64,000 bases of DNA from positions 29,378 through 93,377 of the forward strand of contig CAYQEG010000004.1 in assembly GCA_964416435.1 (NCBI GenBank), read 5' to 3'. The stretch comes from an uncultured Rickettsiales bacterium (GTDB lineage: Bacteria; Myxococcota_A; UBA796; UBA9615). Below, in pieces: positions 4,813 through 50,467 of this stretch. A program made the translations under genes and the position numbers. The notes under the pieces were generated by a model. It saw nothing but the letters and a program-made list of their open reading frames with translations, ran no database searches and was not told where the DNA came from. Position 1 is the stretch's first letter, and the number at the start of each line of letters is the position of its first letter.

Positions 4813-4888
4813 TCGCCGGGCCGCCCGCAGCGGGTTGAACGCCGGCTGAGTTCCTGCAACAGTCCGCCTCCCCGTGGAGGCTGCCGCC

Positions 4889-6169: not shown

Positions 6170-6173
6170 TTCG

Positions 6174-6665: not shown

Positions 6666-6667
6666 CC

Positions 6668-7276
6668 ATGGAAGCCCTCCTGCGCGTCCTTCGCGACGGC
6701 GGGCTCGTCGTCTACCCGACCGAGACCGTGTACGGCATCGGCACCGCCTTGTCGGCCGGTCAGGCCGGCGTCGAGCGGGTGCGGGCGGCCAAGGGGAGCC
6801 CGCCGGGGCGACCGTTCCTCGTCGTGGCGGCCGACGCCGCGATGGCGTTCTCCCTGTGGAGCCGGATCCCCGACGCCGCCCACGCTCTCGCCGACGAGGC
6901 CTGGCCGGGCCCGTTGACGTTGATCGGCCCCGCGCGTGAGGGGCTGCCGCCCGGCCTGCTCGGGGAGCGCGACGGTGAACCCACGATCAGCGTGAGGGTG
7001 CCTGGCGATGCGTGGCTCCGACGCGTGCTCACGTCGCTCGGTGAACCCCTGATCTCGACGTCCGCCAACCGGGCCGGGGAGCCGCCTCCGGGGGCGTTCG
7101 AGGACGTCGATCTCGATGCCCTGAGACCCGACCACGCGGTCGACCGCGGGCGGTGCGCGGGGGGCACGCCGTCGACCTTGATCGACCTCCTCACGGACCC
7201 GCCGACGCTGCTGCGTCGGGGGGCCCTGAATGTGCTATCCATCCCGCTCCTCGGATCCGAGGGAGCCAGCCGATGA
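6668..7276 (+). CDS. tsaC: L-threonylcarbamoyladenylate synthase (YrdC/Sua5 family)
   Basis: Internal ATG of the long ORF 6233-7276. [16 protein letters not shown]...KGSPPGRPF...[12 protein letters not shown] are YrdC-domain motifs. The stop overlaps the leuS start (ATGA). Confidence 0.85.
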
Positions 7277-29644: not shown

Positions 29645-30475
29645 CTACATCGGCCCTCGGATCGCGACGAACCGAGCCAGGAAGTTGCTCGGCTGCTCGT
29701 GGCGGAACGCCCTCCAGCCGGCCTTCATCAGCGCCGTACCGAACTCCTCCATCGCGATGAACGACAGCCCCGACGCGTCGCTCATGGCGCGCTGGGCCTG
29801 GGCGATGTGGGGGAGGTTGCTGCGCGCCAGGGTGACCCCGACGAGCCGCCCCCCGGGCGGGAGCAGGCGGGCGAGTCGGCGAGCGTGATCCAGCGCGTTG
29901 TCGAGCCCGTGCAGCAGCCCGAACGACAGGATCCCGGAGAAGCCGCCCGCCCGGAGCGGCGGCCGGTCCTGGTCGCAGCGGACGAGGCTCCAGCTCCCCA
30001 GCCCCGTGCGGGCCAGCGGCTGCCGCCCGGCCCGCAGCTCGTCGAGCGCGTCGTCGCAGACCACCACGGTGGAGTCGGGGCAGGCGTCCACCACGATCGA
30101 CGCGAGCTCACCGCGCCCGGCGCCCAGGACGAGCAGCGGCCGGCCCGGCTCGTGGTCGAGCCAGCCGAGCAGCGTGAACAGCTCGTCCTCCAGGTCGGTG
30201 TCGCGGAACGCGCCGAGCTGCAGCGCGGCCTCGTGGAAGTGCCAGAAGTCGAGGTCTCGGCCCTGGAACGGATACCGGCGGATCCGGGCCGAGGGGGACC
30301 CGTCGACCAGGTCCAGCACCCCGCCCTTGCAGCGGAAGCTCGCCCCGCAGTCGATGCAGTCGATGTCCGAGAACGGGTTCTCGGCGTCGTCCGGCGGGGG
30401 GACGAGGGTCCCCTGGCATCGCGCGCAGACGAAGCGCGCGATGGTCTCGTTCCGGGCTCGCAGCTGATCGCTCAT
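29645..30475 (-). CDS. class I SAM-dependent methyltransferase with N-terminal zinc ribbon
   Basis: Start MSDQLRARNE. CARCQG...CIDCG zinc-ribbon (Trm112-like) head. Motif I LLVLGAGRGELA and a later LLPPGGRLV block. An alternative start lies 6 codons upstream. Confidence 0.75.
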   Translation of the reverse strand: MSDQLRARNETIARFVCARCQGTLVPPPDDAENPFSDIDCIDCGASFRCKGGVLDLVDGSPSARIRRYPFQGRDLDFWHFHEAALQLGAFRDTDLEDELFTLLGWLDHEPGRPLLVLGAGRGELASIVVDACPDSTVVVCDDALDELRAGRQPLARTGLGSWSLVRCDQDRPPLRAGGFSGILSFGLLHGLDNALDHARRLARLLPPGGRLVGVTLARSNLPHIAQAQRAMSDASGLSFIAMEEFGTALMKAGWRAFRHEQPSNFLARFVAIRGPM

Positions 30476-30563
30476 CGGGCAGCGCCGGAGCATCGCCCGC
30501 CCGGCCGATGTTGACAAGACCTCCGGGCCCCTCCGAAACTCCGCGGTGGAGGGACGGGTGGTC

Positions 30564-31124
30564 ATGAGCGAGACGACGGAAGAGAGCGACCGGGGCAGCG
30601 GGGAGCTGGGCAGCGACGAGGTCAAGGCCCTCGTCGACGGGGCAGCCGAGCTGTTCGACAACCTCAAGGAGGTCTTCACCCGGAGCCGAGAGGAGATCCT
30701 GCGGGGCGCCCAGCTGGGCAAGGTGCGGATCGACCTCTATCAGCTGCGCAAGGACCGGGAGCTGCTGCTGACGCGGCTCGGCGCGGCCGCCCTGGAGCTG
30801 CTCGCGGCTGAGGAGATCGCACACGCGGGGCTCGCCGATCTGCACCACGAGCTGCGCCAGGTGGACTCCGCGATCGCCGAGCACGAAGCCGAGATCGCGG
30901 GGCTGGCGACGGACGAGGACGGCGTCGACGTGGACGCTGCGGCCAACGAGCCGACGCCGGTGGAGGCGACGCCGGTGGAGGCGACGCCGGAGCCCGAGCC
31001 CCCCAAGAAGGCCGCCCCCAAGGCGAAGGCGAAGGCCGCCGCGAAGCCGCGGAAGCGGGCTCCCGCGCGGACGAAGAAGACCACTCGGGGCACCACGTCG
31101 AAGAACACGAAGAAGAAGACCTGA
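30564..31124 (+). CDS. coiled-coil protein with histone-H1-like Lys/Ala/Pro tail (PhaM/PhaF-like?)
   Basis: GGAGG lies 11 nt upstream of ATG 30564; GTG 30546 is an alternative start. Helical N-terminal two thirds. C-terminus PPKKAAPKAKAKAAAKPRKRAPARTKKTTRGTTSKNTKKKT. Confidence 0.6.
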   Translation: MSETTEESDRGSGELGSDEVKALVDGAAELFDNLKEVFTRSREEILRGAQLGKVRIDLYQLRKDRELLLTRLGAAALELLAAEEIAHAGLADLHHELRQVDSAIAEHEAEIAGLATDEDGVDVDAAANEPTPVEATPVEATPEPEPPKKAAPKAKAKAAAKPRKRAPARTKKTTRGTTSKNTKKKT

Positions 31125-31143
31125 CGATCGCCCCTCTACGAGG

Positions 31144-31172
31144 TTGACAAGGCGTTCCCTGCTCTCTAGTTT
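31144..31172 (+). promoter_or_regulatory. sigma70-type promoter of tRNA-Ala
   Basis: TTGACA (31144-31149), 17 nt, TAGTTT (31167-31172), ending 15 nt before the mature tRNA 5' end. Confidence 0.55.
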
Positions 31173-31187
31173 CCCGCGACCTCTTCA

Positions 31188-31263
31188 GGGGCCATAGCTC
31201 AGCTGGGAGAGCGCGTGACTGGCAGTCACGAGGTCGGGGGTTCGATCCCCCCTGGCTCCACCA
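31188..31263 (+). tRNA. tRNA-Ala (anticodon GGC)
   Basis: A 76-nt cloverleaf folded by hand. Acceptor GGGGCCA/TGGCTCC with the G3:U70 alanine identity pair. D-arm GCTC/GAGC, anticodon stem CGTGA/TCACG with loop CTGGCAG, T-arm GGGGG-TTCGATC-CCCCC, and an encoded CCA. Confidence 0.95.
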
Positions 31264-31270
31264 AATCGAC

Positions 31271-31299
31271 ACCGCCGCGGCCCACCCGGTCGCGGCGGT
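31271..31299 (+). terminator. intrinsic terminator after tRNA-Ala
   Basis: ACCGCCGCG-N11-CGCGGCGGT, a 9-bp GC stem followed by TTGTCGTTCT. Confidence 0.55.
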
Positions 31300-31326
31300 T
31301 GTCGTTCTGGCGTCCCAGGCGCCGTC

Positions 31327-31391
31327 TTGTGCAAGAGCACAACGCAAATGCACAAAATGCACTTGACGATTTGTGCAGTCGCACATAGGTT
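31327..31391 (+). promoter_or_regulatory. phasin-operon promoter with GTGC/GCAC operator-like palindromes
   Basis: TTGACG (31363-31368), 17 nt, TAGGTT (31386-31391). The spacer is filled by the palindrome TGTGC-AGTC-GCACA (31372-31385). Upstream are a second palindrome TTGTGC-AAGA-GCACAA (31327-31342) and the direct repeat ATGCAC-AAA-ATGCAC (31347-31361). Confidence 0.5.
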
Positions 31392-31437
31392 CTCCTCACC
31401 GGCTGGCCAACCCGCCCGCCGAACCTGGAGCAGAGCG

Positions 31438-31773
31438 ATGAGCACTACGAAGACCAACACCAAGAAGAGCAACCCCGCGGCCGACGCCGCCCAGCAGGCG
31501 ACCGCCTGGATGACCGACCCCACCCTCGCCGCCCGGGCGTGGCAGGACGCCATGCTCAGCGGGATCGACGGCCTGATCTCGATGCACGAGGAGTTCGGCA
31601 AGGCGATCACGAAGCAGCTCGACTCGCTCCGGACCGAGCGGGAGCGCTTCACCAAGGCCGGTGACGACGCCCTCACCGAGGTGTTCGACAGCGGTATCGA
31701 GGCCAGCCGCAAGGCGCTCGGCTACGCGCGGGACCAGGTCGAGCGGTTCGCCCGGCCGCAGCCCGAGGCGTAG
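31438..31773 (+). CDS. small helical phasin-like protein
   Basis: GGAG lies 7 nt upstream of ATG 31438. 111 aa, predicted all-helical and charged, with no TM. It is the first gene of the PHA operon behind PhaR-type palindromes. The phasin call rests on context and composition, not on a recognised motif. Confidence 0.5.
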   Translation: MSTTKTNTKKSNPAADAAQQATAWMTDPTLAARAWQDAMLSGIDGLISMHEEFGKAITKQLDSLRTERERFTKAGDDALTEVFDSGIEASRKALGYARDQVERFARPQPEA

Positions 31774-31782
31774 GGTCCGACG

Positions 31783-33267
31783 ATGAACCTGCACGGCGAC
31801 CCGATCGCGAGCCGAGCTCGCGCGACTCCGGACCGACCGGCGCTGCGGGAGCTGCGAAGTGGACGCAGTCGAAGCTACGCCGAGTTGAATCGCAGGGCCG
31901 ACGCGGCCGCCGCGGTGCTGTCCGGCCGCTTCGGGGTGGGCCCTTCCGATCGGGTCGCCGTGCTGTCTCGTAACAACCTCGAGCAGGTCGAGTTGCTGAT
32001 CGCCTGTGCCCGACTCGGGGCGATCCTCGTCCCCCTGAACTGGCGACTCGCACCGCGTGAGCTCGCCGGGGTGATGGTGGACGCCGACCCGAGCGTGTTG
32101 TTCGTCGACGCGCCGGGGGCCGCGCTCGCGGCGCGGCTGGAGCAGGCGCCGATCACGATCCGTCTGGGCGACGGCTGGGACGCCGCCGGGCTGCCGAGCC
32201 CCCAGCGGCTCGACCCGGACGGGACCACGCCCCTGCTGGTCCTCTACACGAGCGGCAGCACCGGTCGACCCAAGGGCGCCGTGCTGACCCACGAGTCGAT
32301 CCTGTTCAACGCCATGAACACGCTCATGGCCTGGGAGCTCGGCGCCGCGGATCGCACCCTGATCTCGGCGCCGCTGTTCCACACGGGGGGCTGGAACGTC
32401 CTCCTCCTTCCGCTGCTGATCGCCGGCGGCTGCGTGGCGCTCGCGCCAGACTTCGACGCCGACGAGACGCTGCGTGCCGTCCAGGAGCACCGGCTGACGG
32501 CGCTGTTCGGCGTGCCCACGATGTTCGCGGCGATGCGGCGGGCCGACGCCTTCGACTCGGCCGACCTGGCCAGCCTCCAGTGGGTGATCAGCGGGGGCGC
32601 GCCCTGTCCGCTGCCCGAGATCGAGGCCTGGTGGAGGCGCGGGGTCGAGTTCCGGCAGGGGTACGGCCTGACCGAGGTGGGACCCAACTGCTTCACGATG
32701 CCCCCCGGTGAGGGGCTGCGCCGGGCCGGCACGGTCGGCTTCGCGATGCCCTGGCTGGAGACGCGGATCGTCGACGGGCTCGGGGCCGAGGTGGCTGACG
32801 ACGACGTCGGCGAGCTGCTGCTCCGGGGTCCGACGGTGTGCGCCGGTTACTGGCGCAACCCGGCCGCGACCGCGGCGGCGATCGACGCCGACGGCTGGTT
32901 CCACACCGGCGACCTGTTCGCCCGGTCCTCCGACGGTGGCTTCCGGTGCGTCGGCCGTCGCAAGGAGATGTTCATCAGCGGGGGCGAGAACGTGTACCCC
33001 GGGGAGGTCGAGCGGGTGCTCGCCGGGATCCCGGGTGTCGTCGAGTCTGCCGTCGTACCGGTGCCCCACCCGCTGTGGGGCGAGGTCGGTCACGCCTTCG
33101 TCGCCTTCGCGGAGCACCGGATCGCCGCGGACGAGATCCTCGCCCTGTGCCGGAGCGAGCTGGCGGGGTACAAGGTGCCCAAGCACGTCACCGCGCTCCC
33201 CGAGCTGCCCAAGGGCCCGACCGGGAAGATCCACAAGCCAACGCTCAGCCAGATGGCCGCCCGATGA
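31783..33267 (+). CDS. acyl-CoA (medium/short-chain or hydroxyacyl) ligase, AMP-dependent synthetase family
   Basis: LVLYTSGSTGRPKGAVLTH, GYGLTEVGP, and a C-terminal GKIHK lysine motif. 494 aa. Confidence 0.88.
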   Translation: MNLHGDPIASRARATPDRPALRELRSGRSRSYAELNRRADAAAAVLSGRFGVGPSDRVAVLSRNNLEQVELLIACARLGAILVPLNWRLAPRELAGVMVDADPSVLFVDAPGAALAARLEQAPITIRLGDGWDAAGLPSPQRLDPDGTTPLLVLYTSGSTGRPKGAVLTHESILFNAMNTLMAWELGAADRTLISAPLFHTGGWNVLLLPLLIAGGCVALAPDFDADETLRAVQEHRLTALFGVPTMFAAMRRADAFDSADLASLQWVISGGAPCPLPEIEAWWRRGVEFRQGYGLTEVGPNCFTMPPGEGLRRAGTVGFAMPWLETRIVDGLGAEVADDDVGELLLRGPTVCAGYWRNPAATAAAIDADGWFHTGDLFARSSDGGFRCVGRRKEMFISGGENVYPGEVERVLAGIPGVVESAVVPVPHPLWGEVGHAFVAFAEHRIAADEILALCRSELAGYKVPKHVTALPELPKGPTGKIHKPTLSQMAAR

Positions 33268-34616
33268 CCGACCGAAGTCCGTTCGCCGCGCTGATGGATC
33301 TGTGGGCCCAGGGGGCGCGGCAGGGCATGGAGCAGGCGACGACCTTCTGGAAGGCGGCGGGCATCGACCGCGCCGCCGAGCAGCTCGACCAGATGAGGGT
33401 CGCCGCCGGCCTCCCCCCCGCGGGTGACCAGCTCGCCGCGCTGTGGCGCAGCGCCGTCGGCGAGTACGAGTCGGACCTGGGCGGCCTGCCGCCGTCGGAG
33501 CTCGAGGTCGACCTGCGGCCCCTCGCGGAGGCGTGGGGCGCGGTCACGTCGGGGACGGCGGACGAACGCCAGCGGGGCATGGTCCAGCGATTCAGTCGGG
33601 CGATGGCGGTCAAGGCCCGCCTGGGCGCGGAGTACTACGTCGATCCGGCCGAGGTCGCGGTCCGACCCACCCCGCGTGATCGCGTGAGCCGTGAGGGCAC
33701 CGTCGAGCTGTACCGGTACGACGCGGGCCCCGACGCCCCCCCCCGCAGCGGCGACCCGGTCCTGATCGTCTATTCGGTCATCAACCGTTCCTACATCCTC
33801 GACCTGCAGGAGGACTGCAGCGTCGTCCGGCACCTGCTCGACCGGGGGCTGGACGTCTGGATGATCGAGTGGTCCCAGCCCCACGAAGGGGCCGCGGACG
33901 CCACCCTCCCGGACTACATCGACGCCATCGGCGAGTGCGTGGCGCGCATCCAGGGGCACACCTCCAGCGCCGGCGTCTCCTTGTTCGGACACTGCATCGG
34001 CGGCACGCTGGCCGCGATGTACACGGCCTTGAAGCCCGCCGGCGTGAGTCGGCTGCTCACGCTCACGGCGCCGTTCCGATCGCCCGAGCGGGGGCTCGTC
34101 GCCACCATCGTCGATCCCTCGATGTTCCCCGTGGGCGCGGTCACCGGGGCGTTCGGCAAGATGCCGGCGAAGCTGATCCGGTACACCTTCGTCGCCCTCA
34201 AGCCGTACTACGAGCTGATGAAGTGGAAGATGTTCGTGGGCAACCTCGACCAGCCGAGCGCGATGGACCGCTTCGCCGCGATCGACAAGTGGGCCAACGA
34301 CAACGTCGACATCCCGGCCGAGGTGTTCCGGGTGTACATCGACGAGGTCTTCCACAGCGGTCGACTGGCGCGCGGTGAGACCGAGCTCCGGGGTGAGCGG
34401 GTGGACTTCGCGGCGATCCCCTGTCCCGTCCTCAACCTCGCCGGGGCGGACGACTGGATCGTGCCGCCGGACTCGGCCCGGCCGCTCGACGAGCAGGCTC
34501 CCAACGCTACGTACGAGGAGCTGTCGGGCTCCCACCTCACGCTGGTCCTGGACCCGAGGATGCAGGAGCGCTGGGTCGTTCTCAGCGACTTCCTGCTCGG
34601 AGGGGAGGCGGCGTGA
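33264..34616 (+). CDS. phaC: poly(3-hydroxyalkanoate) synthase, class III/IV-like PhaC with N-terminal extension
   Basis: ATGA overlap with the ligase stop. PVLIVYSVINRSYILDLQ...GLDVWMIEW...SLFGHCIGGTLAAMY shows the G-x-C-x-G-G lipase-box with a Cys nucleophile, as in PhaC. A later D and H fit a C-D-H triad. About 450 aa. Confidence 0.8.
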   Translation: MTDRSPFAALMDLWAQGARQGMEQATTFWKAAGIDRAAEQLDQMRVAAGLPPAGDQLAALWRSAVGEYESDLGGLPPSELEVDLRPLAEAWGAVTSGTADERQRGMVQRFSRAMAVKARLGAEYYVDPAEVAVRPTPRDRVSREGTVELYRYDAGPDAPPRSGDPVLIVYSVINRSYILDLQEDCSVVRHLLDRGLDVWMIEWSQPHEGAADATLPDYIDAIGECVARIQGHTSSAGVSLFGHCIGGTLAAMYTALKPAGVSRLLTLTAPFRSPERGLVATIVDPSMFPVGAVTGAFGKMPAKLIRYTFVALKPYYELMKWKMFVGNLDQPSAMDRFAAIDKWANDNVDIPAEVFRVYIDEVFHSGRLARGETELRGERVDFAAIPCPVLNLAGADDWIVPPDSARPLDEQAPNATYEELSGSHLTLVLDPRMQERWVVLSDFLLGGEAA

Positions 34617-35503
34617 GTGCCCGTCGTCATCTTTGCGTGAGTGCTGTGCTGAGCTGCCTCACGGTGGCCTGCGGGGTGGGGTCGACGGAGCCTCCGCCGG
34701 CCCCGGACGAGCGGGTGGAGTGGGGCACCCGTGAGCTCCCCGCTACCCAGTGTGTCGGCGACGCCGACGGGGTCATCACGGCCGATGAGCTGGTGTTCGC
34801 GCCGGGGCTCGCGCCGACGGCTGCGTTCCTGGTCGATCCGCCGGAGTCCGAGCCCTCGCTGCCCGGCTCACGGTGGGACCTGGACTGGGCCGCGGACGGC
34901 GCCGACGCCGTCGCGTGGCTCGGCCCGGAGGAGGCGGGCGGGGCGTGGTTCGACGGTTGGTTCCCCGCGGCGGACTTCCACGCGCTCACGGACGTCGGCG
35001 CGGCCAGCCGCTCGATCTACGCGGTGTCCGGCGACTCGCTGCTGATGCTCGGCGTCGCCTCGGAGACCCCGGACGAATCGGTCCTCCGCTACGACCCGGC
35101 GGTCCCGGTGCTGCCGCTGCCGCTGCAGGTCGGCGACAGTTGGACGGCCGAGGTGGACGCCGAGGGCGTGCACGACGGCCAGGAGTACCCGGCCGACTTC
35201 GGGATCCAGGGGGTCGTCACCCTCGTGCACCGCTACTCGTTCGAGGTGGTGGAGTTCGGCGTGCTGTCGGTGCCGGCCGCCGATCTGCCGGCGCTGCGGA
35301 TCCGGGTCGAGCTCGTCACCGAGGCCCACAACAGCTTCGTCGGGCTGTTCGCGTCCGAGTCGGTTCGACTGGATCTCATGGTGGCCGAGTGCCTGGGGGT
35401 GGTCGCCCGCATCCGCAGTCTGCCGGACGAGCCGTCGGCCGACTTCACGGTCGCCCAGGAGGTGCAGCGGCTCGGCTTCGAGCCGGAGCTCCTCGACCCG
35501 TGA
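34613..35503 (+). CDS. lipoprotein of unknown function (paralog of 38030-38860)
   Basis: GTGA overlap with the phaC stop. Signal peptide plus lipobox LTVAC. It shares blocks with the 38030 gene (C..DADG..(T/S)ADEL; LP/RLPL..G..W). Confidence 0.65.
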   Translation: MSARRHLCVSAVLSCLTVACGVGSTEPPPAPDERVEWGTRELPATQCVGDADGVITADELVFAPGLAPTAAFLVDPPESEPSLPGSRWDLDWAADGADAVAWLGPEEAGGAWFDGWFPAADFHALTDVGAASRSIYAVSGDSLLMLGVASETPDESVLRYDPAVPVLPLPLQVGDSWTAEVDAEGVHDGQEYPADFGIQGVVTLVHRYSFEVVEFGVLSVPAADLPALRIRVELVTEAHNSFVGLFASESVRLDLMVAECLGVVARIRSLPDEPSADFTVAQEVQRLGFEPELLDP

Positions 35504-36405
35504 GTCGGCTGCTCCTGGCGCTGGTGCTCACGCTCTCGCTCGGCCTCTCCGGCTGCCTGCGGCGCCAGGTCGCGCCCTACGACTACGCCGCCGACCCCCA
35601 CGCCCACTCCACGTTCGAGCTGGACGGCACGATGATCCACTACGCCGACCAGGGTCGCCGGGACGCGCCCCCGGTGGTGATGATCCACGGCTTCGGCTCC
35701 TCCATCCGGGTCTGGAACGAGCTGACGATCGGCCTGACCGACGATCGCCGGGTCGTGCGGGTGGACCTCCCGGGGTTCGGTCGGTCGAGCCGCTACGAGG
35801 ACGACTACTCGCGCGCGCGGCTCTCCGAAGTCGTGCTCGCGCTCATGGACCACCTCGCCATCGAGCGCGCGGACCTGGTGGCCCACTCGATGGGGAGCGC
35901 GATCGCGCTGAGCGTCGCCGGGTCGAACCCCGATCGGGTCGGCCGCGTCGTCCTCGCGGCGCCCTGGACCTACGAGGACCAGGTGCCCTGGGGGCTGCGG
36001 GACGCGCGTCGGCCGGGGGTCGGGGAGTTCATCTTCGGGGTCTGGTACCTCGAGCACCTGGACTGGCGGTTCCGACTGAGCTTCGCCGACCCGGACGCCT
36101 GGGTCACCGAGGGGATGGTGCAGCGGGCCCGCGATGACCTGACGCAGCCCGGCGGCCGCTACGCCGCCCTGCAGGTCGTGCGGGGCACCGATCTGGAGAC
36201 GCTGGAGGCGATGCTCGGGTCGGTGGAGGCGCCGGTGCTCGTCGTCCAGTGCGACGCCGACGTCGTCTCCCGGCCGGAGTACGCGCGGCGGCTCGCGTCG
36301 TCGCTGGCTCACGCCGAGCTCGAGGAACTCACGGGTTGTGGGCACTTCCCGATGATCGAGCGCTCCGACCGGTTCGCGGCCCTGGTGCAGGGGTGGCTGC
36401 AGTGA
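35500..36405 (+). CDS. alpha/beta-hydrolase lipoprotein
   Basis: GTGA overlap. VSRLLLALVLTLSLGLSGC lipobox. HGFGSS oxyanion region, nucleophile elbow AHSMGSA, C-terminal GCGHFPMIE histidine. Confidence 0.8.
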   Translation: MSRLLLALVLTLSLGLSGCLRRQVAPYDYAADPHAHSTFELDGTMIHYADQGRRDAPPVVMIHGFGSSIRVWNELTIGLTDDRRVVRVDLPGFGRSSRYEDDYSRARLSEVVLALMDHLAIERADLVAHSMGSAIALSVAGSNPDRVGRVVLAAPWTYEDQVPWGLRDARRPGVGEFIFGVWYLEHLDWRFRLSFADPDAWVTEGMVQRARDDLTQPGGRYAALQVVRGTDLETLEAMLGSVEAPVLVVQCDADVVSRPEYARRLASSLAHAELEELTGCGHFPMIERSDRFAALVQGWLQ

Positions 36406-38024
36406 AGCGGCTCGCGCTGCTGGGGGCGCTGCTGCTGGCGTTGCCGGCGGCGTCGCACGCGGGGGAGGGGACCGGCCTGCGCCCGCTCCCGGCGCACGCC
36501 GGAGGCGCCCGCCCCGAGACGTTCACCCTGGACGGCTACTTCCGCACCCGCGGCGCGCTGATGCACAACCTGGACCTCGACCGGGGACCGACCCCGAGCG
36601 CGGGGGAGCCGATCTACCCGGTCCCCCCTAGCGGCGGTCAGCTGCTCGGCAGCGCCGACGCTCGGCTGAGGCTCGACCTGGGCATCCACGTCGGCGACGT
36701 GGTGACGGCCCACCTGAAGGTCGACGTGTTGGACGGCCTGGTGCTCGGCTCGACCCCCGAGGGGTTCCCGCCGACGCGCTGGTCCCAGACCGGGTGGGCG
36801 TCGTCGCGCCAGCTGGCCCCCAGCGCCGGGTTCAACTCGTTCGTCGACTCGATCCGGGTCAAGGAGGCATACGGCGAGGTGCTCACGCCCGCCGGCACGC
36901 TGTCCTTCGGCCGCATGCAGCTGCCCGTCTGGGGCCTGGGCATGGTGACCGGCCAGGAGGCGGACGTCGACAGCGACTGGGACGACCCGGTCGATCGGCT
37001 CGCCTTCGCGACGTCCTTCGCCGACCACCTGCTCGGGGTGTCGTTCGACGTCAACGCCGTGGGTCCGACGTCGGCCACCTCCCGGGGGAGCCGCACGCCG
37101 GGCCAGGCTGTCGACCTGGATCTCGCCGACAACGCCTACACGCTGAGCCTGGCGTTCGGCCGGTTTCACGAGGACGCGGCGGTGCTCCGGCGGCGGGCCG
37201 CCTCCAAGCCGACGTTCAGCTACGGGGCCTACGCCACCTGGCGCTTCCAGCAGACCGACCTGCCGACCTACTACCTCGACGGCATCGCGTCGGAGGACGC
37301 CGCCTGGGACGGCGACGACGCAGTCCGCCGGGATCTTCACGCCGTGCTCGCCGACGGCTGGGCGCGGCTGTACGCCGGGCCGATCCGGGTCGAGCTCGAG
37401 GTCGCCTACCTGTGGTCCCGGGTGGGGGACCCCTCGGGGGATCCCAGCGTGAGCCTGCCGACGATGACCGGCAACCAGGCCGGCGGCGTGCTCGAGGTCG
37501 AGGTCGAGGCCCTTCGAGAGCGCCTCTGGGTGCAGATCACCGCGGGGCTGGCGTCGGGCGATCCCGCCCCGGGGCTGGGGGTCGCGCCGCCGGTCGGTCA
37601 GCTGACGGGCGTGGCGGGGGACCTGGACGCCCCGCAGTTCTCCCTCCCCGACGACGTGGAGTTCAACAACTTCCGGTTCCACCCCGGCTACCGGGTGGAC
37701 CTCGTGTTCTGGCGATCGATCGTCGGCGCGGTCACGGACGCCTTCTTCGTCCGCCCGCAGCTCAACTGGCGCGCCTCGGACGCCCTGTCGGGTTCGGTCG
37801 CTGGCGTCCTGTCGACGGCCCTGGTGGCCGACTCCACGCCGACCGGGGATCCCGTGTACGGCGGCGAGATCGACCTCGCGGTCCGGTGGGCCCCCGTCGC
37901 CGGCTTCGTCGTCGTCGGCGAGTACGGCCTCTTCCTGCCGGGGACCGCCCTGGATCATCCGACCGAGGGTTGGCGAGCGCAGCCGGCCCAGGTCTTCCGC
38001 GGCACCGCCGCCGTCGTCTGGTGA
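36402..38024 (+). CDS. outer-membrane beta-barrel protein (putative porin/transporter)
   Basis: GTGA overlap. Signal peptide VKRLALLGALLLALPAASHAGEG. Alternating hydrophobic beta-strand pattern throughout. C-terminal ...VFRGTAAVVW ends in an aromatic residue, as in OMP beta-signals. Confidence 0.6.
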   Translation: MKRLALLGALLLALPAASHAGEGTGLRPLPAHAGGARPETFTLDGYFRTRGALMHNLDLDRGPTPSAGEPIYPVPPSGGQLLGSADARLRLDLGIHVGDVVTAHLKVDVLDGLVLGSTPEGFPPTRWSQTGWASSRQLAPSAGFNSFVDSIRVKEAYGEVLTPAGTLSFGRMQLPVWGLGMVTGQEADVDSDWDDPVDRLAFATSFADHLLGVSFDVNAVGPTSATSRGSRTPGQAVDLDLADNAYTLSLAFGRFHEDAAVLRRRAASKPTFSYGAYATWRFQQTDLPTYYLDGIASEDAAWDGDDAVRRDLHAVLADGWARLYAGPIRVELEVAYLWSRVGDPSGDPSVSLPTMTGNQAGGVLEVEVEALRERLWVQITAGLASGDPAPGLGVAPPVGQLTGVAGDLDAPQFSLPDDVEFNNFRFHPGYRVDLVFWRSIVGAVTDAFFVRPQLNWRASDALSGSVAGVLSTALVADSTPTGDPVYGGEIDLAVRWAPVAGFVVVGEYGLFLPGTALDHPTEGWRAQPAQVFRGTAAVVW

Positions 38025-38029
38025 GACCG

Positions 38030-38860
38030 ATGAGAACTGCCGCCCTCGCCCTGCTGTTCCCGCTGCTCGCGTGCACGCCCGGGCCGACCAACCCCGACGT
38101 CAGCGAGCCGGTCGGGCCGCCCGTGCCGGAGTGTCGGATCGACGCGGACGGCCAGCTGTCGGCGGATGAACTCCCGCTGCAGCCGGGGATCTCGGTCCGG
38201 TACGTGCGCAACGAGCCGGGCACCACCGTCTCGTTCCCCCCCGACGGCGCGGTCGGCGACGCCGGCGCTCGGATCTGGGACTTCACCGAGGGCCCGGCGG
38301 AGGTCGGCGCGACGCTGACCACGCTGGACCCGGCCGAACACTGGTTCGGCCCCCTGTTCCCCGACGCGGACCTGGCGTCGCCGCTCCTCGTGGAGTCACC
38401 GGAGCTGGTCGGCGTCTACCAGTACGCCCCGGAGGAGGGGGAGCTCAGGCTCCTGGGGGTGACCACCGCGACGGAGCAGCCCCCGGAGCGCAAGACGCTG
38501 ATCATCTATGACGAGCCGGTCGTTGCGCTGCGCCTCCCCCTGACCGAAGGGGCGACCTGGGGTCAGCAGGCGACGTTCCGGGACGCGGTGATCGCCGGTC
38601 TGCCCAACGCGGGGGTCGAGGACTGGCACGTGGAGGTCGACGCCGCGGGAGCGGCCCGGCTCCGCGGGGACGTGGAGGTGAGGCAGGTGCTCCGCGTACG
38701 CAGCTCGGTCCACCGCACCCTCGCCGTCGCGCTGGGCGAGCCGAGCACCGCGCTGCACAAGATCGTCTGGATGGCGCCTTGCTTCGGGGACATCGCGTCT
38801 CTCTCGGGGGCCGACGCGACGCTGCAGCCGGCCGACGAGCTCCGTCGCTACTACCCCTGA
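38030..38860 (+). CDS. lipoprotein of unknown function (paralog of 34613-35503)
   Basis: Starts 5 nt after the barrel gene. MRTAALALLFPLLAC lipobox. Shares blocks with the 34613 lipoprotein. Confidence 0.65.
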   Translation: MRTAALALLFPLLACTPGPTNPDVSEPVGPPVPECRIDADGQLSADELPLQPGISVRYVRNEPGTTVSFPPDGAVGDAGARIWDFTEGPAEVGATLTTLDPAEHWFGPLFPDADLASPLLVESPELVGVYQYAPEEGELRLLGVTTATEQPPERKTLIIYDEPVVALRLPLTEGATWGQQATFRDAVIAGLPNAGVEDWHVEVDAAGAARLRGDVEVRQVLRVRSSVHRTLAVALGEPSTALHKIVWMAPCFGDIASLSGADATLQPADELRRYYP

Positions 38861-39453
38861 CCGCCGCCGCCGAGCATCTTCATCAGCTCCGCCATCTGCG
38901 CCTTGAGCGCGGCGACGTCATTGGCGAGCCTCGGCTCAGCCGGGTCGGCCTCGGCCTCGGCCTCCGCCTCCGCCTGAGGCTCCGGAGCCGGCTCGGGGTC
39001 TGCGTCGGGCGCGCCCGTCGGCTGCTTGCCCGTGCTCCCGAAGGCGCCGGTCACCATCTCCATCCAGGCGTTCGCTCCGGCGCGGGCGGCCTCGGCGGCC
39101 GAGCCGAAGGCGGTGTCGAGCTGGCGGCTCCACGCCTCGCCGACGGAGAGGAACTGCTGCAGCGACTCGCCCAGGAACGTTGACAGGGCCTCGGCCTGGA
39201 CCGTGCCCTGGACCCGGATCACGTGGTGGAGGAGGTCGATCGGGAGCAGGTCGAGCCGCTCCTGCTCGTCCAGGATCACCTGCACGAGCACCTGGCGGGT
39301 CAGGTCGTCGCCGCTCTTGGCGTCCACCACCTCCACCCGGCGGCCGGCGCGCACGATGGCGGCGAGCTCGGCCAGGGTGATGTAGCGGCTCTGATCGGTG
39401 TCGTAGAGCCGCCGGTTCGCGTACTTCTTGATCCGCAGAGGGTCTTGCTGCAT
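38851..39453 (-). CDS. phaR: polyhydroxyalkanoate synthesis repressor PhaR
   Basis: The N-terminus IKKYANRRLYDTDQSRYITLAELAAIV is the diagnostic PhaR DNA-binding block. 200 aa with an acidic/Ala-Glu-Pro C-terminal tail. Confidence 0.9.
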   Translation of the reverse strand: MQQDPLRIKKYANRRLYDTDQSRYITLAELAAIVRAGRRVEVVDAKSGDDLTRQVLVQVILDEQERLDLLPIDLLHHVIRVQGTVQAEALSTFLGESLQQFLSVGEAWSRQLDTAFGSAAEAARAGANAWMEMVTGAFGSTGKQPTGAPDADPEPAPEPQAEAEAEAEADPAEPRLANDVAALKAQMAELMKMLGGGGQG

Positions 39454-39501
39454 GGGCGAGAGACTATACAGCGAGACTCTCGCAGTACAGCGCTTTGCTC
39501 A

Positions 39502-39554
39502 TTGGTGCGACGCACCAAATCGAGTTGACACGTCGCAGTCGCACACCGTACGCT
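39502..39554 (+). promoter_or_regulatory. phaR / phaC2 divergent control region
   Basis: Perfect 17-bp palindrome TTGGTGCG-A-CGCACCAA (39502-39518). TTGACA (39525-39530) is followed by GCAGTCGCACA (39535-39545), an 11-mer identical to 31375-31385 in the phasin promoter, then a TACGCT -10-like hexamer (39549-39554). Confidence 0.45.
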
Positions 39555-39560
39555 GTCGTC

Positions 39561-40601
39561 ATGTTGCAATGCACCATCGACAATGTCACCCGCGCCGCGC
39601 GCGTCTGGGCCGAGCTGACCCCGGGCCCCGAGCACGACGTGGACTGGACCACCCCTCACGGCGTCGTGCTGAAGACCTCGTCCCTGACGCTGCGGGACTT
39701 TGGCGGGGGCGCGCCGGGGAGCGAGCACCCGCTCCTCATCGTCGCCCCGGAGGTCAACGGCTCCAACCTCGCCGACTACGGCCCCGGCCAGAGCCTCGTC
39801 GCCGTCGCGAAGAGCGCGGGGTTCGGGCGTGTCTGCGTGCTCCACTGGGAGCAGATCACCGACGCGACCGCGCACCGGGACATCGACGACTCCATCGCCG
39901 ACGTCGTGCGCTGCATCGACGCCATCGGGGGCCGCGCCCACCTGCTCGGCATCTGCCAGGGGGGCTGGGAGTCGGCCATCGTCGCGGCGATGTGGCCCGA
40001 CAAGGTGGCGAGCCTGACCCTGGCGGGCGCCGCCATTGACTTCCGGGCCGGCTGGGGGGCGATCACCCGGCTGGTCGACCAGGTGCCCGAGCCCGTCTAC
40101 CGGGGCATGGTCGCCTCGGGCGGCGGCGTGATGCGGGGTGAGCTGATCCGCGTGGGGTTCGACGCCCTGCAGGCCTGGAACCGCTGGGTCGTCGACCCCA
40201 TCCAGCTGTGGAACCGCGTCGACGACGAGGCGTACTCCGAGCGGCGCGCTCGCATGGACCGCTGGTACCGGGTGCGCAAGGACCTCGCCGGGCCGATGTA
40301 CCTGCGGGTCGTCGAGGACCTGTTCCGACACAACAAGCTGATCGCGGGGGAGCTCGAGGTGCTCGGTCGCACGGTCGACCTGGGCGACGTCGTCTGCCCG
40401 ATCGCCATGGTCGCGGGGACCCACGACCACATCACGCTCCCCGAGCAGGTGTGGGCCATCGAGCCGGTGGCGAGCAGCGAGCGGACGGAGCGATTCGAGG
40501 TGCCGGGAGGGCACGTCGGCCTGGTCATCGGAAGCCGCGCCCAGCGACGCTACTGGCCCGACGTGTTCGCCTGGATCAAGCGGGGCGAGGAGCGCGACTG
40601 A
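39561..40601 (+). CDS. Cys-nucleophile alpha/beta-hydrolase, PhaC (class III)-like or intracellular PhaZ-like
   Basis: ATG 39561 (MLQCTIDNV). PLLIVAPEVNGSNLADY, then HLLGICQGGWESAIVAAMWPDKVASLTLAGAAIDF (G-x-C-x-G-G box). Late GTHDHI and GGHVGL. 346 aa. Confidence 0.7.
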   Translation: MLQCTIDNVTRAARVWAELTPGPEHDVDWTTPHGVVLKTSSLTLRDFGGGAPGSEHPLLIVAPEVNGSNLADYGPGQSLVAVAKSAGFGRVCVLHWEQITDATAHRDIDDSIADVVRCIDAIGGRAHLLGICQGGWESAIVAAMWPDKVASLTLAGAAIDFRAGWGAITRLVDQVPEPVYRGMVASGGGVMRGELIRVGFDALQAWNRWVVDPIQLWNRVDDEAYSERRARMDRWYRVRKDLAGPMYLRVVEDLFRHNKLIAGELEVLGRTVDLGDVVCPIAMVAGTHDHITLPEQVWAIEPVASSERTERFEVPGGHVGLVIGSRAQRRYWPDVFAWIKRGEERD

Positions 40602-40625
40602 CAGGTCGGGTAGTCTCCGCGTCGC

Positions 40626-42044
40626 TTGCTTTTTCCGACGCTCGACTACCTGGTGTTCCTGCCTCTGTGCGTCGCCCTGTACTGGGCGGTGCCCCGGCGC
40701 GCTCGCATGTGGGTGCTGCTCGTCGCGTCGATCTTCTTCTACGCGTCGTGGCGGCTCGAGTACCTGGCCATCCTCGCGGCCGTCGTCGGGCTGACCTGGA
40801 TCGGCTCGCTGTGGGTGGAGGACCGTCGGCATCGCGGGCAGCCGCTGCAGGTCGCCTGGCTCGTCCTGATCCCGCTGATCCTCAGCCCCCTGGTCGTCTT
40901 CAAGTACTGGAACTGGCTCGCCGGCGACGTCCAGGCGTTCCTGCAGGCGATCGGGCTCGCGGTCGACCTGCCCGACCACAAGCTGCCGCTGCCCATCGGG
41001 ATCAGCTTCTTCACCTTCCAGGCGATCGCCTACCTCGTGGATGTCGGCCGGGGGGACGACGCCGAGCGGGATCCGGTCCGCTTCTCGACGTTCATCACCT
41101 TCTTCCCGCAGCTCATCGCCGGCCCCATCGTCCGCGGCCGGGAGATGCTCCCCCAGCTGCGTCGGCTCCCGCTGCTCGCCAACGACCAGATCTCGGCCGG
41201 CCTGTTCCGCATCGCGCGGGGCATGTTCAAGAAGATCGTGCTGGCCGACATCCTGCGCGTCGGGATCGTCGACCCGCTGTTCACCGACCCGCAGAACTTC
41301 ACCGGCGTCGAGCTGATGATCGGCCTGTACGCCTACACGCTGCAGATCTACTACGACTTCAGCGGCTACACCGACATCGCCATCGGCTCCGGCCGGCTCT
41401 TCGGGTACGAGCTCCCCGAGAACTTCCGCCGGCCCTACAAGGCGACCAACGTCACCGCCTTCTGGCGGCGTTGGCACGTCACCCTGAGCCTGTGGGTCCG
41501 CCACTACATCTACTTCCCCCTGGGGGGGGCGAGGGTCGGCCCGTCCCGGGTCTACGTGAACCTCGCCCTGACCTTCCTCGTGCTCGGGATCTGGCACGGC
41601 GCGTCGTGGAACTTCGTCGTCTACGGCGCCATCCACGGCGGGGCGATGTGCACCCACCGCTACTTCCGCAAGCGACACGGGCGGGACCCGGACGACGTGC
41701 CCCCCGGCTGGTGGTCCTGGACGTGGCGCTGGCTGGTCACGTTCCACTTCGTGGTGCTCGCCCGGATCCTGTTCCGGGCGGAGGACTTCAGCACCTCGGG
41801 TGAGTACTTCCGGGGCCTGTTCGACGCCACGATGCTGATGCCGCGGTTCGCCCCGCTGGCCCTCGGCGTCATGGCCGCCGGCCTGGCCATCCACCTCAGT
41901 CCCGACGACTGGCAGCCGCGCGCCCGGGCCTGGTTCGCCCGCATCGGGCCCGTCGGCCAGGCGCTGGTGCTCGCCATCGTGGCGGCCGCCTGCCTGCTCC
42001 TCGGCACCGGCGAGCAGCTCTCCTTCGTGTACTACAGTTTCTAG
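40626..42044 (+). CDS. MBOAT-family membrane O-acyltransferase (AlgI/PatA/DltB-like)
   Basis: TTG start MLFPTLDYLVFLP. Multi-TM. The FW(R)RWH(V)TLS.W block and a conserved His in GIWHGASWNF are typical of AlgI-type MBOATs. Confidence 0.88.
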   Translation: MLFPTLDYLVFLPLCVALYWAVPRRARMWVLLVASIFFYASWRLEYLAILAAVVGLTWIGSLWVEDRRHRGQPLQVAWLVLIPLILSPLVVFKYWNWLAGDVQAFLQAIGLAVDLPDHKLPLPIGISFFTFQAIAYLVDVGRGDDAERDPVRFSTFITFFPQLIAGPIVRGREMLPQLRRLPLLANDQISAGLFRIARGMFKKIVLADILRVGIVDPLFTDPQNFTGVELMIGLYAYTLQIYYDFSGYTDIAIGSGRLFGYELPENFRRPYKATNVTAFWRRWHVTLSLWVRHYIYFPLGGARVGPSRVYVNLALTFLVLGIWHGASWNFVVYGAIHGGAMCTHRYFRKRHGRDPDDVPPGWWSWTWRWLVTFHFVVLARILFRAEDFSTSGEYFRGLFDATMLMPRFAPLALGVMAAGLAIHLSPDDWQPRARAWFARIGPVGQALVLAIVAAACLLLGTGEQLSFVYYSF

Positions 42045-42046
42045 GC

Positions 42047-43609
42047 ATGCCCGACTCCACCCACCGCAGGGAGCTTCGACGCGGCGCGATCGTGCTGGGG
42101 TTGCTGTGCCTGCTCGGGGGCGGCACGTACCTCGTGCCCCAGGCCGAGGCGATGCGGCCCTGGCTGCCGGGGGAGGAGATCCCGGTCGTGCACCTGCTGC
42201 TCCCCCGGGGGGAGCGGGTGGTCAAGGAGGACGATCGGGGCGAGCTCGCAGTGCTGGACGCGGAGCCGGTGACGCCCGCGCCGACGCCCGCGCCGTTGAG
42301 CCCCGCGGCGCGGCTGCCCGAGCGGGACGGCGCCGTGCGCACCCCGCTGGAGTTGCCCGACGGCGGGGTCCTGGATCCCTTCTTCCAGGTGCTCGCGGCG
42401 GCCGAGACCGGGGAGCCCGATCGGATCGTCCGGGTGCTGCACTGGGGCGACTCGACGATCGCCGCCGACGGCATCTGCAGCCGGGTGCGCCAGCGGATGC
42501 AGGCTCGGTTCGGAGACGGGGGGCCCGGCTTCCTGCCGGTGCACGTCGACACCCGCTGGCAGATCCGGCCCGGCATCCTGCGCGTCAACGACGACAGCGA
42601 GTGGGAGACCTTCAACGTCACCTTCGCGGGCAGCGACGAGTGGCGGTACGGCCTGGGTGGCCACGTCAGCACCGCGTCGGGCGAGGCGTCCGTCACGCTC
42701 GGGGGGGAGCGGCGCGGCGACGACAAGAAGCGCCAGCCGCTGCACCGCTTCGACGTCTACTACCAGGCCCGCCCCGAAGCCGGCTCCGTCTCCATCACGC
42801 CCAGCGGGGCGCGCGGCGTGCGCATCAACACCGCGGCCGCCCGGGTGCAGGACCGCTTCCGCGAGCTCACCTCCGCCGGCGGCAGCAGCAAGCTGTGGAT
42901 CAAGGCCAACGGGGACGGGCCGGTGTCGCTGTACGGCGTCGCCCTGGAGACCGAGGGGCCGGGCATCACGTGGGAGACGCTGGGCGTCGCCGGGTCGTCG
43001 ATCGCGTCGGTCATCAACCACCAGGGCCGGGTCCACCTCAAGGGCCAGGTGGAGCGGCGATCGCCCGACCTGATCGTCTACCAGACCGGCGGCAACGAGT
43101 TGGAATACCCGGACCTGCAGCGCGGCGAGGGGCTCGCCTACCGGGCCAAGTACCTGGAGGCGCTGGACAAGCTCCGGGCCGGCGCCCCCTACACGCCGTG
43201 CCTCATGATCGGCCCGATCGACCAGGGCACGCGGGTCCGCGGGGACGTCGTCAGCCGCGAGGGGCTCGACAAGATCATCCGCCTGCAGCGCGAGGCGGCG
43301 ACCGAGGCGGGCTGCGCCTACTGGAACGCCCGCGGCGTGATGGGGGACGACGGAGGCTTCGCGCGCTGGATCCAGCACACGCCGCAGCTGGCGAGCACCG
43401 ACCTGCTCCACCTCACCACCGAGGGCTTCGACCTGATCGGGGACAGCCTCGCCGACGCGTTGCTCGACCGCTACGACGAGTGGCGCGAGGCCCACCCCGA
43501 GGCGGGCTGGATCATCGAGGGCGAGCAGGTCGGGCCGCCGCTGCCCGAGCCCGAACCCGAGCCCGAGGCCACGCCCGAACCGGCGGTCAGCCCCCCTCCA
43601 GCGCCGTGA
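42047..43609 (+). CDS. membrane-anchored SGNH/GDSL-like acyl-transferase/esterase
   Basis: Starts 2 nt after the MBOAT gene. N-terminal TM anchor. SGNH blocks VLHWGDSTIA (block I), YQTGGNE (block III) and DLLHLT (block V D-x-x-H), with a roughly 170-aa insertion between blocks I and III. Pro/Glu-rich C-terminal tail. Confidence 0.7.
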   Translation: MPDSTHRRELRRGAIVLGLLCLLGGGTYLVPQAEAMRPWLPGEEIPVVHLLLPRGERVVKEDDRGELAVLDAEPVTPAPTPAPLSPAARLPERDGAVRTPLELPDGGVLDPFFQVLAAAETGEPDRIVRVLHWGDSTIAADGICSRVRQRMQARFGDGGPGFLPVHVDTRWQIRPGILRVNDDSEWETFNVTFAGSDEWRYGLGGHVSTASGEASVTLGGERRGDDKKRQPLHRFDVYYQARPEAGSVSITPSGARGVRINTAAARVQDRFRELTSAGGSSKLWIKANGDGPVSLYGVALETEGPGITWETLGVAGSSIASVINHQGRVHLKGQVERRSPDLIVYQTGGNELEYPDLQRGEGLAYRAKYLEALDKLRAGAPYTPCLMIGPIDQGTRVRGDVVSREGLDKIIRLQREAATEAGCAYWNARGVMGDDGGFARWIQHTPQLASTDLLHLTTEGFDLIGDSLADALLDRYDEWREAHPEAGWIIEGEQVGPPLPEPEPEPEATPEPAVSPPPAP

Positions 43610-50351: not shown

Positions 50352-50467
50352 TCTACTACTCGACGCGTGCCACGGGGCCGGGCGTCCCGTCGCCCGCGCG
50401 CCCCCGGAGGGCCGCCCGCCGGGGGGCCGGATTTTGCTAGCCTTCCGTCCCCAACTCGGAGGAGTGC

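Follow-up and report, generated by a model that had tools for sequence, protein, structure and literature searches.

Why should an operon for polyhydroxyalkanoate (PHA) synthesis encode four exported proteins? This question is raised by positions 31438–38860 of a 64,000-nt stretch of contig CAYQEG010000004.1 (hereafter the window, to which all coordinates refer), from a genome of ~72% GC. To our knowledge, PHA metabolism has been treated as purely cytoplasmic, and outer-membrane machinery encoded within a pha operon has not been described. A first-pass annotation of the same DNA had proposed two answers, a scavenge-and-store pathway and an export route for a PhaC-made ester product. Here, we found that the locus is a translationally coupled operon and that its four envelope genes are a conserved cassette linked to pha genes. 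We further propose, with slightly less than even confidence, that it serves as a salvage line from ester uptake to storage polymer. The operon and its immediate neighbours are as follows.

31188..31263, + strand: tRNA-Ala(GGC), detected by ARAGORN and Rfam RF00005 (65 bits); 5' boundary of the operon
31438..31773, + strand: g1, 111 aa, GC content at third codon positions (GC3) 0.97; candidate granule-associated or accessory protein
31783..33267, + strand: g2, acyl-CoA ligase of the ANL superfamily with PF00501 and PF13193
33264..34616, + strand: g3, PhaC-like synthase of 450 aa
34613..35503, + strand: g4 (lipo1), lipoprotein of a new all-beta family
35500..36405, + strand: g5, lipoprotein alpha/beta-hydrolase with the lipobox LSGC
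36402..38024, + strand: g6, outer-membrane beta-barrel of the TIGR04551 family with a signal peptide
38030..38860, + strand: g7 (lipo2), lipoprotein, paralogue of g4, with the lipobox LLAC
38851..39453, − strand: phaR, PHA-responsive repressor with PF07879
39561..40601, + strand: phaC2, second PhaC-like synthase, with its likely ATG start at 39561

The seven genes that the first-pass annotation had placed head to tail on one strand were all present as + strand open reading frames (ORFs), each with one terminal stop codon and a GC3 of 0.92–0.97, which is the coding signature here. Their coupling was as tight as had been claimed: from g1 to g7, the junctions measure +9, −4 (ATGA), −4, −4, −4 (GTGA), and +5 nt. 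The PF07879 gene phaR lies on the opposite strand at the 3' end of the operon, also in agreement with the earlier reading. It is convergent with g7, and the two overlap tail to tail by 10 bp (38851–38860), so that there is no space for a terminator between them. On the 5' side, a GC-rich hairpin with a T-run is located 3' of the tRNA-Ala gene, and this tRNA-plus-hairpin layout is kept in the related loci L004 and L007.

Conservation of the locus was investigated by scanning species-representative genomes with an alignment of the barrel. At least 558 relatives were confirmed, of which the best 80 loci were examined; three further loci, from Persicimonas caeni, a metagenome contig, and a fusion-bearing contig, were added. 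At 90% identity, the barrel forms at least 1,400 clusters, and an exhaustive profile search for the lipoprotein family gave 649 representative clusters. The cassette of lipoprotein, hydrolase, barrel, and lipoprotein was complete in 67 of the 68 loci with enough flanking sequence. A PhaC-like gene or phaR was located within 6.5 kb of it in 39 of the 40 loci whose flanks allowed this comparison (a PhaC-like gene in 37, the ligase in 34), and clustering of all ORFs in the loci gave the same recurrent families. The linkage was kept at a barrel identity of 37–40%, a lipoprotein identity of ~28%, and across at least four gene orders. The first-pass annotation had suggested looking for phaC and a ligase beside homologues of g4, g6, and g7, and had regarded envelope genes conserved elsewhere without pha genes as a sign of accidental adjacency. 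The linkage persists through deep divergence and rearrangement, and in the loci examined the cassette was not one conserved apart from pha genes. The named organisms carrying the locus belong to Myxococcales, Polyangiaceae, Sandaracinaceae, and Bradymonadales, while the taxon labels of the nearest metagenome-assembled genomes are unreliable. P. caeni has the full locus, at 1.58–1.60 Mb of CP042468, and is the sole named cultured species among the 120 listed matches to its barrel.

The gene order of the window is a minority one, found only in the closest relatives (L004–L007 and L084). In the common order, genes for a short-chain dehydrogenase/reductase (SDR), a PhaC-like protein, a small protein, and phaR on the − strand are followed by lipoprotein, hydrolase, barrel, lipoprotein, mini-PhaE, ligase, and PhaC genes in the divergent direction, with gaps of 130–250 nt between the cassette and the ligase/PhaC genes. 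The mini-PhaE, a protein of ~97 aa encoded before the ligase gene in 28 related loci, corresponds to a truncated PhaE, as 21 of 24 members matched PF09712. The placement of the ligase–PhaC pair varies: it can be upstream of the cassette, downstream of it, or in swapped order, and PhaC can also occur alone. The divergent pha unit of the common arrangement (FabG/PhaB-like SDR, PhaC-like protein, ~106-aa protein, and phaR) was located at 4624–7170 (−) in L001, with equivalents in ~27–34 loci. Most genomes therefore have two PhaC-like genes flanking the envelope cassette, and these may represent one de novo and one salvage route. A separate sub-type (L002/L003, L008, and L010–L012) has a gene for an SSF carrier, then one for a PhaC-like protein of 532 aa that bears a long N-terminal extension, and then the cassette.

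Fusions of neighbouring components were also identified. In the hydrolase–barrel fusions P0016, P0018, P0020, P0087, and P0119, an N-terminal lipobox is followed by the hydrolase, a Pro- or Gly-rich linker, and a barrel that has no signal peptide of its own. The hydrolase–barrel fusion at 9001–11487 of L084 was verified at the DNA level; the operon is otherwise in the gene order of the window, and its start and stop codons overlap at the PhaC-to-lipoprotein junction as they do in the window. In P0263, a lipase-like DUF7379 alpha/beta-hydrolase is fused to the lipoprotein domain. The hydrolase–barrel and lipase–lipoprotein fusions therefore indicate that the components of the cassette work together. 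Given the usual topology of even-stranded barrels, the former would also have the esterase sit where the channel opens to the periplasm. P0244, P0245, P0252, P0259, and P0371 were also among the domain fusions listed in other genomes, which include tandem forms with double or triple lipoprotein domains. A read-through of an MFS gene into a lipoprotein gene keeps an internal lipobox and probably represents two merged genes.

Profile searches on the four envelope proteins, which the first-pass annotation had recommended, assigned g5 and g6 to families and left g4 and g7 with no match in Pfam or NCBIfam. g6 scored 335.9 bits against TIGR04551 (cut-off 300) over profile positions 1–512 of 519; this is an NCBIfam family to which no function has been assigned, and homologues of g6 carry the name "TIGR04551 family protein" at NCBI and JGI. 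The signal peptide and the aromatic C-terminus reported earlier for this protein were both observed, the sequence ending in AAVVW, and 50 of 60 barrel homologues end in F, Y, or W. The AF2 model (pLDDT 85) has 18 strands. Among PDB structures, AlgE was the nearest to this model, followed by MOMP, chitoporin (ChiP), and OccK channels. A profile of the barrel family retrieved nothing from the PDB sequences, so the matches came from fold comparison alone. g6 itself had no Pfam match, PF13372 (Alginate_exp) included, at E ≤ 0.1, and 7 of 69 homologues matched PF13372 weakly (best 5.3e-5). Judging from the predicted fold and these family matches, g6 is a distant relative of AlgE/Alginate_exp. The conserved residues facing the modelled lumen are polar or charged (12 basic and 9 acidic positions), as would suit a small hydrophilic solute; the mixed charge does not decide the direction of transport.

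The paralogy of the two lipoproteins, already noticed in the first pass, was evident from BLASTP (E = 1e-9, 32% identity over 154 aa) and extends from end to end in the family alignment. Members share a conserved Cys pair and a C-x-G-D-x-D-G loop, and the AF2 model of g4 (pLDDT 84) is all-beta. In extended form, the loop after the first conserved Cys reads C-x-(G/I)-D-(G/A)-D-G-x-(I/L/V)-x3-(D)E-L, at residues 46–61 of g4 (34748–34795) and 33–47 of g7 (38126–38170). It resembles part of the Ca-binding loop of EF-hands and dockerins, but its position 1 is not acidic.

For g5, the description as an alpha/beta-hydrolase lipoprotein held: apart from its lipobox, it has PF00561 and PF12697, the nucleophile elbow AHSMG, and a C-terminal GCGHF motif, and 32 homologues show little or no variation at H129, S130, G132, and H282. 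It stayed below the cut-offs of the depolymerase models (NF050089, 78 bits against 300; TIGR02240, 42 bits against 250.6). With the single sequence as query, the polyhydroxybutyrate (PHB) depolymerase 8ynv was among the top PDB matches, over the N-terminal half only, and with the family profile it was outscored by meta-cleavage-product hydrolases and PlaF (6i8w). Because the family is about equally close to several hydrolase types, its homology does not assign a substrate, PHB esters included.

The cytoplasmic half of the operon was examined in the same way. The acyl-CoA ligase g2 matched PF00501 (288.4 bits) and PF13193 (59.5 bits), both above the cut-off, as expected from the earlier label. 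Its best NCBIfam scores stayed below the cut-offs, with no equivalog cut-off reached, and its best PDB matches were 8weu/8wev (337 bits) and FadD13. In g3, the GHCIGG Cys box reported before was accompanied by a predicted triad of C244, D397, and H424, and a Cys–Asp–His triad is shared by at least 99% of the 91 PhaC-like proteins encoded in related loci. g3 matched PHA synthases of the PDB at E = 5e-19, and its Cys and Asp align to those of the solved structures. The scores against TIGR01836 and TIGR01838 were 222.1 bits (cut-off 365.3) and 110 bits, respectively. A class III-like catalytic domain (residues 119–435) follows an N-terminal extension of ~118 aa. The extension was considered as a fused mini-PhaE and rejected (hhalign E = 0.13, not significant), and no gene of the window matched the PhaE models PF09712 or TIGR01834. 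phaC2, with the box GICQGG and the triad C154/D311/H340, is 27% identical to g3 (E = 4e-26), scored 137.1 bits against TIGR01836, and matched PF11339 and PF06850. The two PhaC-like copies of Persicimonas (303.6 and 261.3 bits) are also below the cut-off of this model. Judging from these motifs and alignments, g3 and phaC2 are PhaC-like synthases with a putative polymerase function. The ligase is of the FadD, MenE, or feruloyl type, whereas class III-like PhaCs usually accept short monomers, so these matches do not assign a chain length.

The label "phasin-like" that g1 had received was not confirmed. g1 had no match in Pfam or NCBIfam, phasin family models included, and neither did the 33 members compared from a family to which it is weakly related. 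This ~106-aa family is encoded beside phaR in 34 related loci, and g1 resembles it at E = 3e-5 and 3.6e-4. A relation of the g1 family to mini-PhaE was also considered, and the comparison gave none.

How the operon may be controlled is suggested by the following elements.

31363..31391, + strand: sigma-70-like promoter, TTGACG (31363–31368), 17-nt spacer, and TAGGTT (31386–31391)
31372..31385, no strand: spacer palindrome TGTGCAGTCGCACA, TGTGCA-N2-TGCACA, at a classic position for a repressor
31328..31341, no strand: upstream palindrome TGTGCAAGAGCACA, candidate PhaR-type operator 44 nt upstream of the spacer copy
39506..39573, no strand: phaR/phaC2 divergent control region, with TGCGACGCA (39506–39514) and TGCAATGCA (39565–39573) of the TGC-N3-GCA type

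The promoter and the palindromes covering it, both reported in the first pass, are present in the window, and the two palindromes are the only exact copies of TGTGC-N4-GCACA in its 64 kb. The four closest loci (L004–L007) show the same layout of −35 box, TGTGCA..TGCACA, and TAnnnT ahead of their g1 homologues, and hence the promoter is not a chance match. A generic promoter and terminator scan of 30400–42500 recovered no promoter, since the −10 box fits at 3 of 6 positions only; the site was recovered only by comparing five loci. phaR scored 96 bits against PF07879 (PHB_acc_N; cut-off 25) and 105.8 bits against TIGR01848 (cut-off 109.45). In 50 related loci, the 250 nt upstream of phaR, a region shared with the divergent cassette, contain 77 copies of TGC-N3-GCA, while dinucleotide shuffles of the same regions gave 8.7 ± 2.9 copies, an enrichment of ~9-fold; at least one copy was found in 48 of the 50. 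No copy was found upstream of the downstream mini-PhaE/ligase/PhaC genes in 28 loci; if PhaR controls these genes, it would thus do so via the cassette promoter. In the window, TGCGACGCA and TGCAATGCA are palindromes of the kind that usually lies upstream of phaR in this clade. The control region between phaR and phaC2 also holds TTGACA and measures ~108 nt up to the ATG at 39561, although the phaC2 ORF opens at a TTG at 39495, 41 nt from phaR. Given the palindromes at the g1 promoter, PhaR may bind there.

Genes for small-carboxylate carriers recur beside the related loci. SSF carriers adjoin eight loci and also L084, where the gene is divergent from the g1-type promoter; MFS genes are inserted in six loci, with phaR on one side and the first lipoprotein gene on the other; and YaaH/SatP carriers occur in seven. 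These are three unrelated inner-membrane families of monocarboxylate type. A CoA ligase beside PhaC implies monomers that come in as free acids. The Bradymonabacteria, an order that includes P. caeni, accumulate PHA during predation (PMC7460792, whose supplements give KEGG counts for phaC).

Here, we propose a model in which the locus is a PhaR-controlled salvage line, a reading whose probability we put a little below one half. Within it, the transport direction, the identity and chain length of the substrate, the topology of the hydrolase, and the binding of PhaR at the g1 promoter are our inferences. Small soluble (R)-3-hydroxyacyl esters would cross the outer membrane via the 18-strand TIGR04551 channel; these could be dimers and oligomers of 3-hydroxybutyrate set free from PHA, or hydroxyacyl esters of another kind, with prey or detritus as the source. 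The two paralogous lipoproteins would capture the substrate or pass it along, and the lipid-anchored hydrolase at the periplasmic channel mouth would cleave the esters to free hydroxy-acids. A monocarboxylate carrier of the SSF, MFS, or SatP family would then move the acids across the inner membrane, where the acyl-CoA ligase would convert them to CoA thioesters and the Cys–Asp–His PhaC-like synthase would polymerise these into a granule. The growing granule would titrate PhaR off its operator, so that uptake and storage reinforce each other. A narrower version, tentative and in our judgement rather unlikely, is an envelope-to-granule line of Myxococcota-type predators. There, a complex of the AlgE-like channel, the tethered esterase, and the two lipoproteins would strip (R)-3-hydroxyacyl units from prey esters (PHA oligomers, for example, and possibly lipid A or other hydroxyacyl lipids). 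A CoA ligase would pass these units straight to PHA synthase, and PHA would be built from scavenged monomers without PhaA/PhaB under PhaR feed-forward.

Several observations weigh against the salvage model. The ligase is of the FadD, MenE, or feruloyl-CoA-synthetase type and not of the short-chain ACS type; no carrier gene, SSF included, was found in the 64-kb window; and L002-type loci have no ligase or phaR within 10 kb. The homology of g5 is generic, reaching C–C hydrolases, the phospholipase PlaF, esterases, and PHB depolymerase. The half-sites at the g1 promoter share GTGC/GCAC with those upstream of phaR but are spaced by N4, one base wider than N3. The linkage counts rest on the best 80 of at least 558 matches, and because all loci come from one broad lineage (Myxococcota-type and Bradymonadales), part of the linkage could be inherited synteny. 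Finally, the top 16 Foldseek matches of the g6 model in the PDB were all AlgE, an exporter (E ~1e-15, TM-scores 0.5–0.67), and the g4 model weakly matched the YmcC/GfcB lipoproteins 4fvs, 3fzx, and 2in5, which are of capsule-export type (E = 1e-3 to 3e-2, probability 0.77–0.99, TM-scores 0.24–0.40). These structural matches, together with the weak Alginate_exp hits among the barrel homologues, count in favour of a rival reading, export or deposition. In that case, the ligase and PhaC would make short hydroxyacyl oligoesters, to be released or attached to the envelope via the AlgE-like barrel, with the hydrolase acting as a trimming enzyme or transacylase and the lipoproteins as periplasmic or outer-membrane scaffolds. 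The MFS proteins of six loci can be exporters, and engineered E. coli secretes PhaC-made oligomers, with porins credited for the passage across the outer membrane (PMC7889595). Yet no inner-membrane polymer translocase or exporter, periplasmic scaffold, or TPR lipoprotein recurs across ~80 loci, and family scans showed no membrane domain in the PhaC-like proteins. SSF and SatP are families of uptake carriers, a hydrolase tethered to the channel would destroy the ester product unless it were a transferase, and the TM-scores are modest (0.5–0.67 for the barrel, 0.3–0.4 for the lipoprotein). We thus regard export or deposition as improbable. Between the two answers of the first-pass annotation, scavenge-and-store fits better than export, because monocarboxylate carriers recur, the ligase needs a free acid, the fusions would place the esterase at the channel, and no exporter recurs; its direction and substrate are still what we infer.

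A function of the envelope genes apart from storage is unlikely but less so. Under PhaR as a regulator of carbon status, they could remodel or hydrolyse lipids of the outer membrane or of prey, with products that are not fed to PhaC. The ligases of fatty-acid type would suit such a role, as would a hydrolase family as near to PlaF (6i8w) and generic esterases as to PHB depolymerase; moreover, PhaR has a wider regulatory role in some bacteria (PMC12542648). However, the ligase–PhaC linkage survives repeated rearrangement and is accompanied by translational coupling in the window type, monocarboxylate carriers recur beside the locus, and the barrel lumen is charged, whereas a lipid channel would be expected to be hydrophobic. 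That the envelope and pha genes are neighbours by descent only is very unlikely. The occurrence in one broad lineage and the 130–250-nt gaps dividing the cassette from the ligase/PhaC genes in the common arrangement are compatible with such synteny, but the linkage in 39 of 40 loci was retained in at least four gene orders despite identities of 37–40% for the barrel and ~28% for the lipoprotein. The start/stop overlap at the PhaC-to-lipoprotein junction in the window and L084, and the operator-rich region common to phaR and the cassette, also argue against it.

Around the operon, one gene may be accessory to it.

30546..31124, + strand: possible accessory gene, 192 aa, coiled N-terminal part and a Lys/Ala/Pro-rich histone-H1-like tail KKAAPKAKAKAAAKPRKRAP

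This gene is kept beside the operon in L004, L006, and L007 and has no family match; from its composition only, the architecture of the predicted protein recalls the granule–nucleoid tethers PhaF/PhaM. Downstream of phaC2, 40626–43609 (+) encodes a DltB/AlgI-like MBOAT protein and then a 521-aa GDSL/SGNH protein, a typical O-acyltransferase pair. The pair was otherwise found only in L004 and L007, in the opposite orientation, and lies outside the conserved locus. A Dlt-like acylation system (ligase, MBOAT, carrier, and esterase) was considered and rejected, as the pair is confined to the window, L004, and L007, and no carrier protein was found. A second tRNA-Ala of 89 nt called by ARAGORN at 40089–40177 (+) lies inside the phaC2 frame, has no Rfam support, and is probably a false positive. 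The flanking genes of the window are unrelated and encode an MscS-like channel, a methyltransferase, an M64 peptidase, a MopE-repeat protein, and an amidohydrolase; the MopE-repeat protein (46917–50477, −; 1186 aa) has 12 MopE-type repeats that putatively bind Cu (PF11617, E = 4e-84).

The first-pass annotation knew of no described system with such an arrangement, and our search of the literature on TIGR04551, myxobacterial PHA synthases, PhaC/PhaR with the outer membrane, and uptake of 3-hydroxybutyrate oligomers also found no description. Should the uptake line be true, it would account for the PHA granules that predatory Myxococcota and Bradymonadales build up as they feed. It would also give functions to three families lacking one (TIGR04551, the lipoprotein family, and the tethered esterase), and its parts could be used to engineer cells that turn the breakdown products of polyesters directly back into polymer. 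Should the locus export or deposit oligoesters, it would represent the first route found in nature for secreting PhaC products. P. caeni, a cultured organism that carries the locus, allows a direct test of both possibilities.

Compared with known systems, the cytoplasmic half resembles a diverged class III-like PHA locus with PhaR, and the envelope half an AlgE-like barrel without the other components of alginate or capsule systems. Class III/IV PHA loci with PhaR are represented by phaEC of Allochromatium vinosum and by the phaP/phaR regulation model of Cupriavidus and Paracoccus. Like these, the present locus has a Cys–Asp–His PhaC with a class III-like domain, a PhaR with PHB_acc_N, TGC...GCA promoter palindromes, and a small protein as its first gene product, and related loci add the ~97-aa mini-PhaE and a FabG/PhaB-like SDR. 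Unlike them, it encodes four exported envelope proteins inside the operon, and a CoA ligase replaces phaA/phaB beside PhaC. Two PhaC-like genes are present per locus, both products falling below the TIGR01836 cut-off, and neither a full-length PhaE nor a Pfam phasin is found here.

In alginate export, the AlgE porin works with the lipoprotein AlgK and periplasmic AlgX/AlgL. The predicted 18-strand monomeric barrel of the present locus is similarly paired, at the level of genes, with lipoproteins and a periplasmic enzyme of hydrolase fold. In contrast, neither an Alg8/Alg44-type inner-membrane synthase nor an AlgK-type TPR lipoprotein recurs in 81 loci, the modelled lumen is of mixed charge and not uniformly basic, and the cytoplasmic chemistry is that of a polyester, not a polysaccharide. 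The pairing of a small all-beta lipoprotein with a large barrel is also seen in the group 4 capsule proteins GfcB/YmcC and GfcD/YjbH. Here, however, the TM-scores of 0.3–0.4, the lack of a Pfam YjbF/GfcB match, and the lack of an OPX/Wza component set the locus apart, and its lipoproteins, of ~280 aa, have a conserved disulfide pair and the DxDG loop.

Bdellovibrio bacteriovorus has a PHA depolymerase (Martinez et al. 2013, as cited in PMC7460792). The use of prey PHA by this bacterium shares with the present locus a predatory setting of Deltaproteobacteria type, and PHA granules rise during predation in an order that carries the locus. In Bdellovibrio, in contrast, the depolymerase serves catabolism. 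We know of no outer-membrane channel/lipoprotein module or re-polymerisation route described there.

The closest parallels to the proposed uptake are the chitoporin ChiP with periplasmic chito-oligosaccharide hydrolases, and acs-yjcH-actP of E. coli, which joins a CoA ligase to an SSF carrier. With the former, the locus would share the logic of a specific 18-strand channel and oligomer cleavage in the periplasm; with the latter, related loci share an SSF carrier adjoining an AMP-forming CoA ligase. Its barrel has no sequence relationship to ChiP/OprD, its hydrolase has a lipid anchor and in some species forms one polypeptide with the channel, and two extra lipoproteins are present. Moreover, the end product proposed here is a storage polymer, whereas ChiP and acs-actP lead to catabolism.

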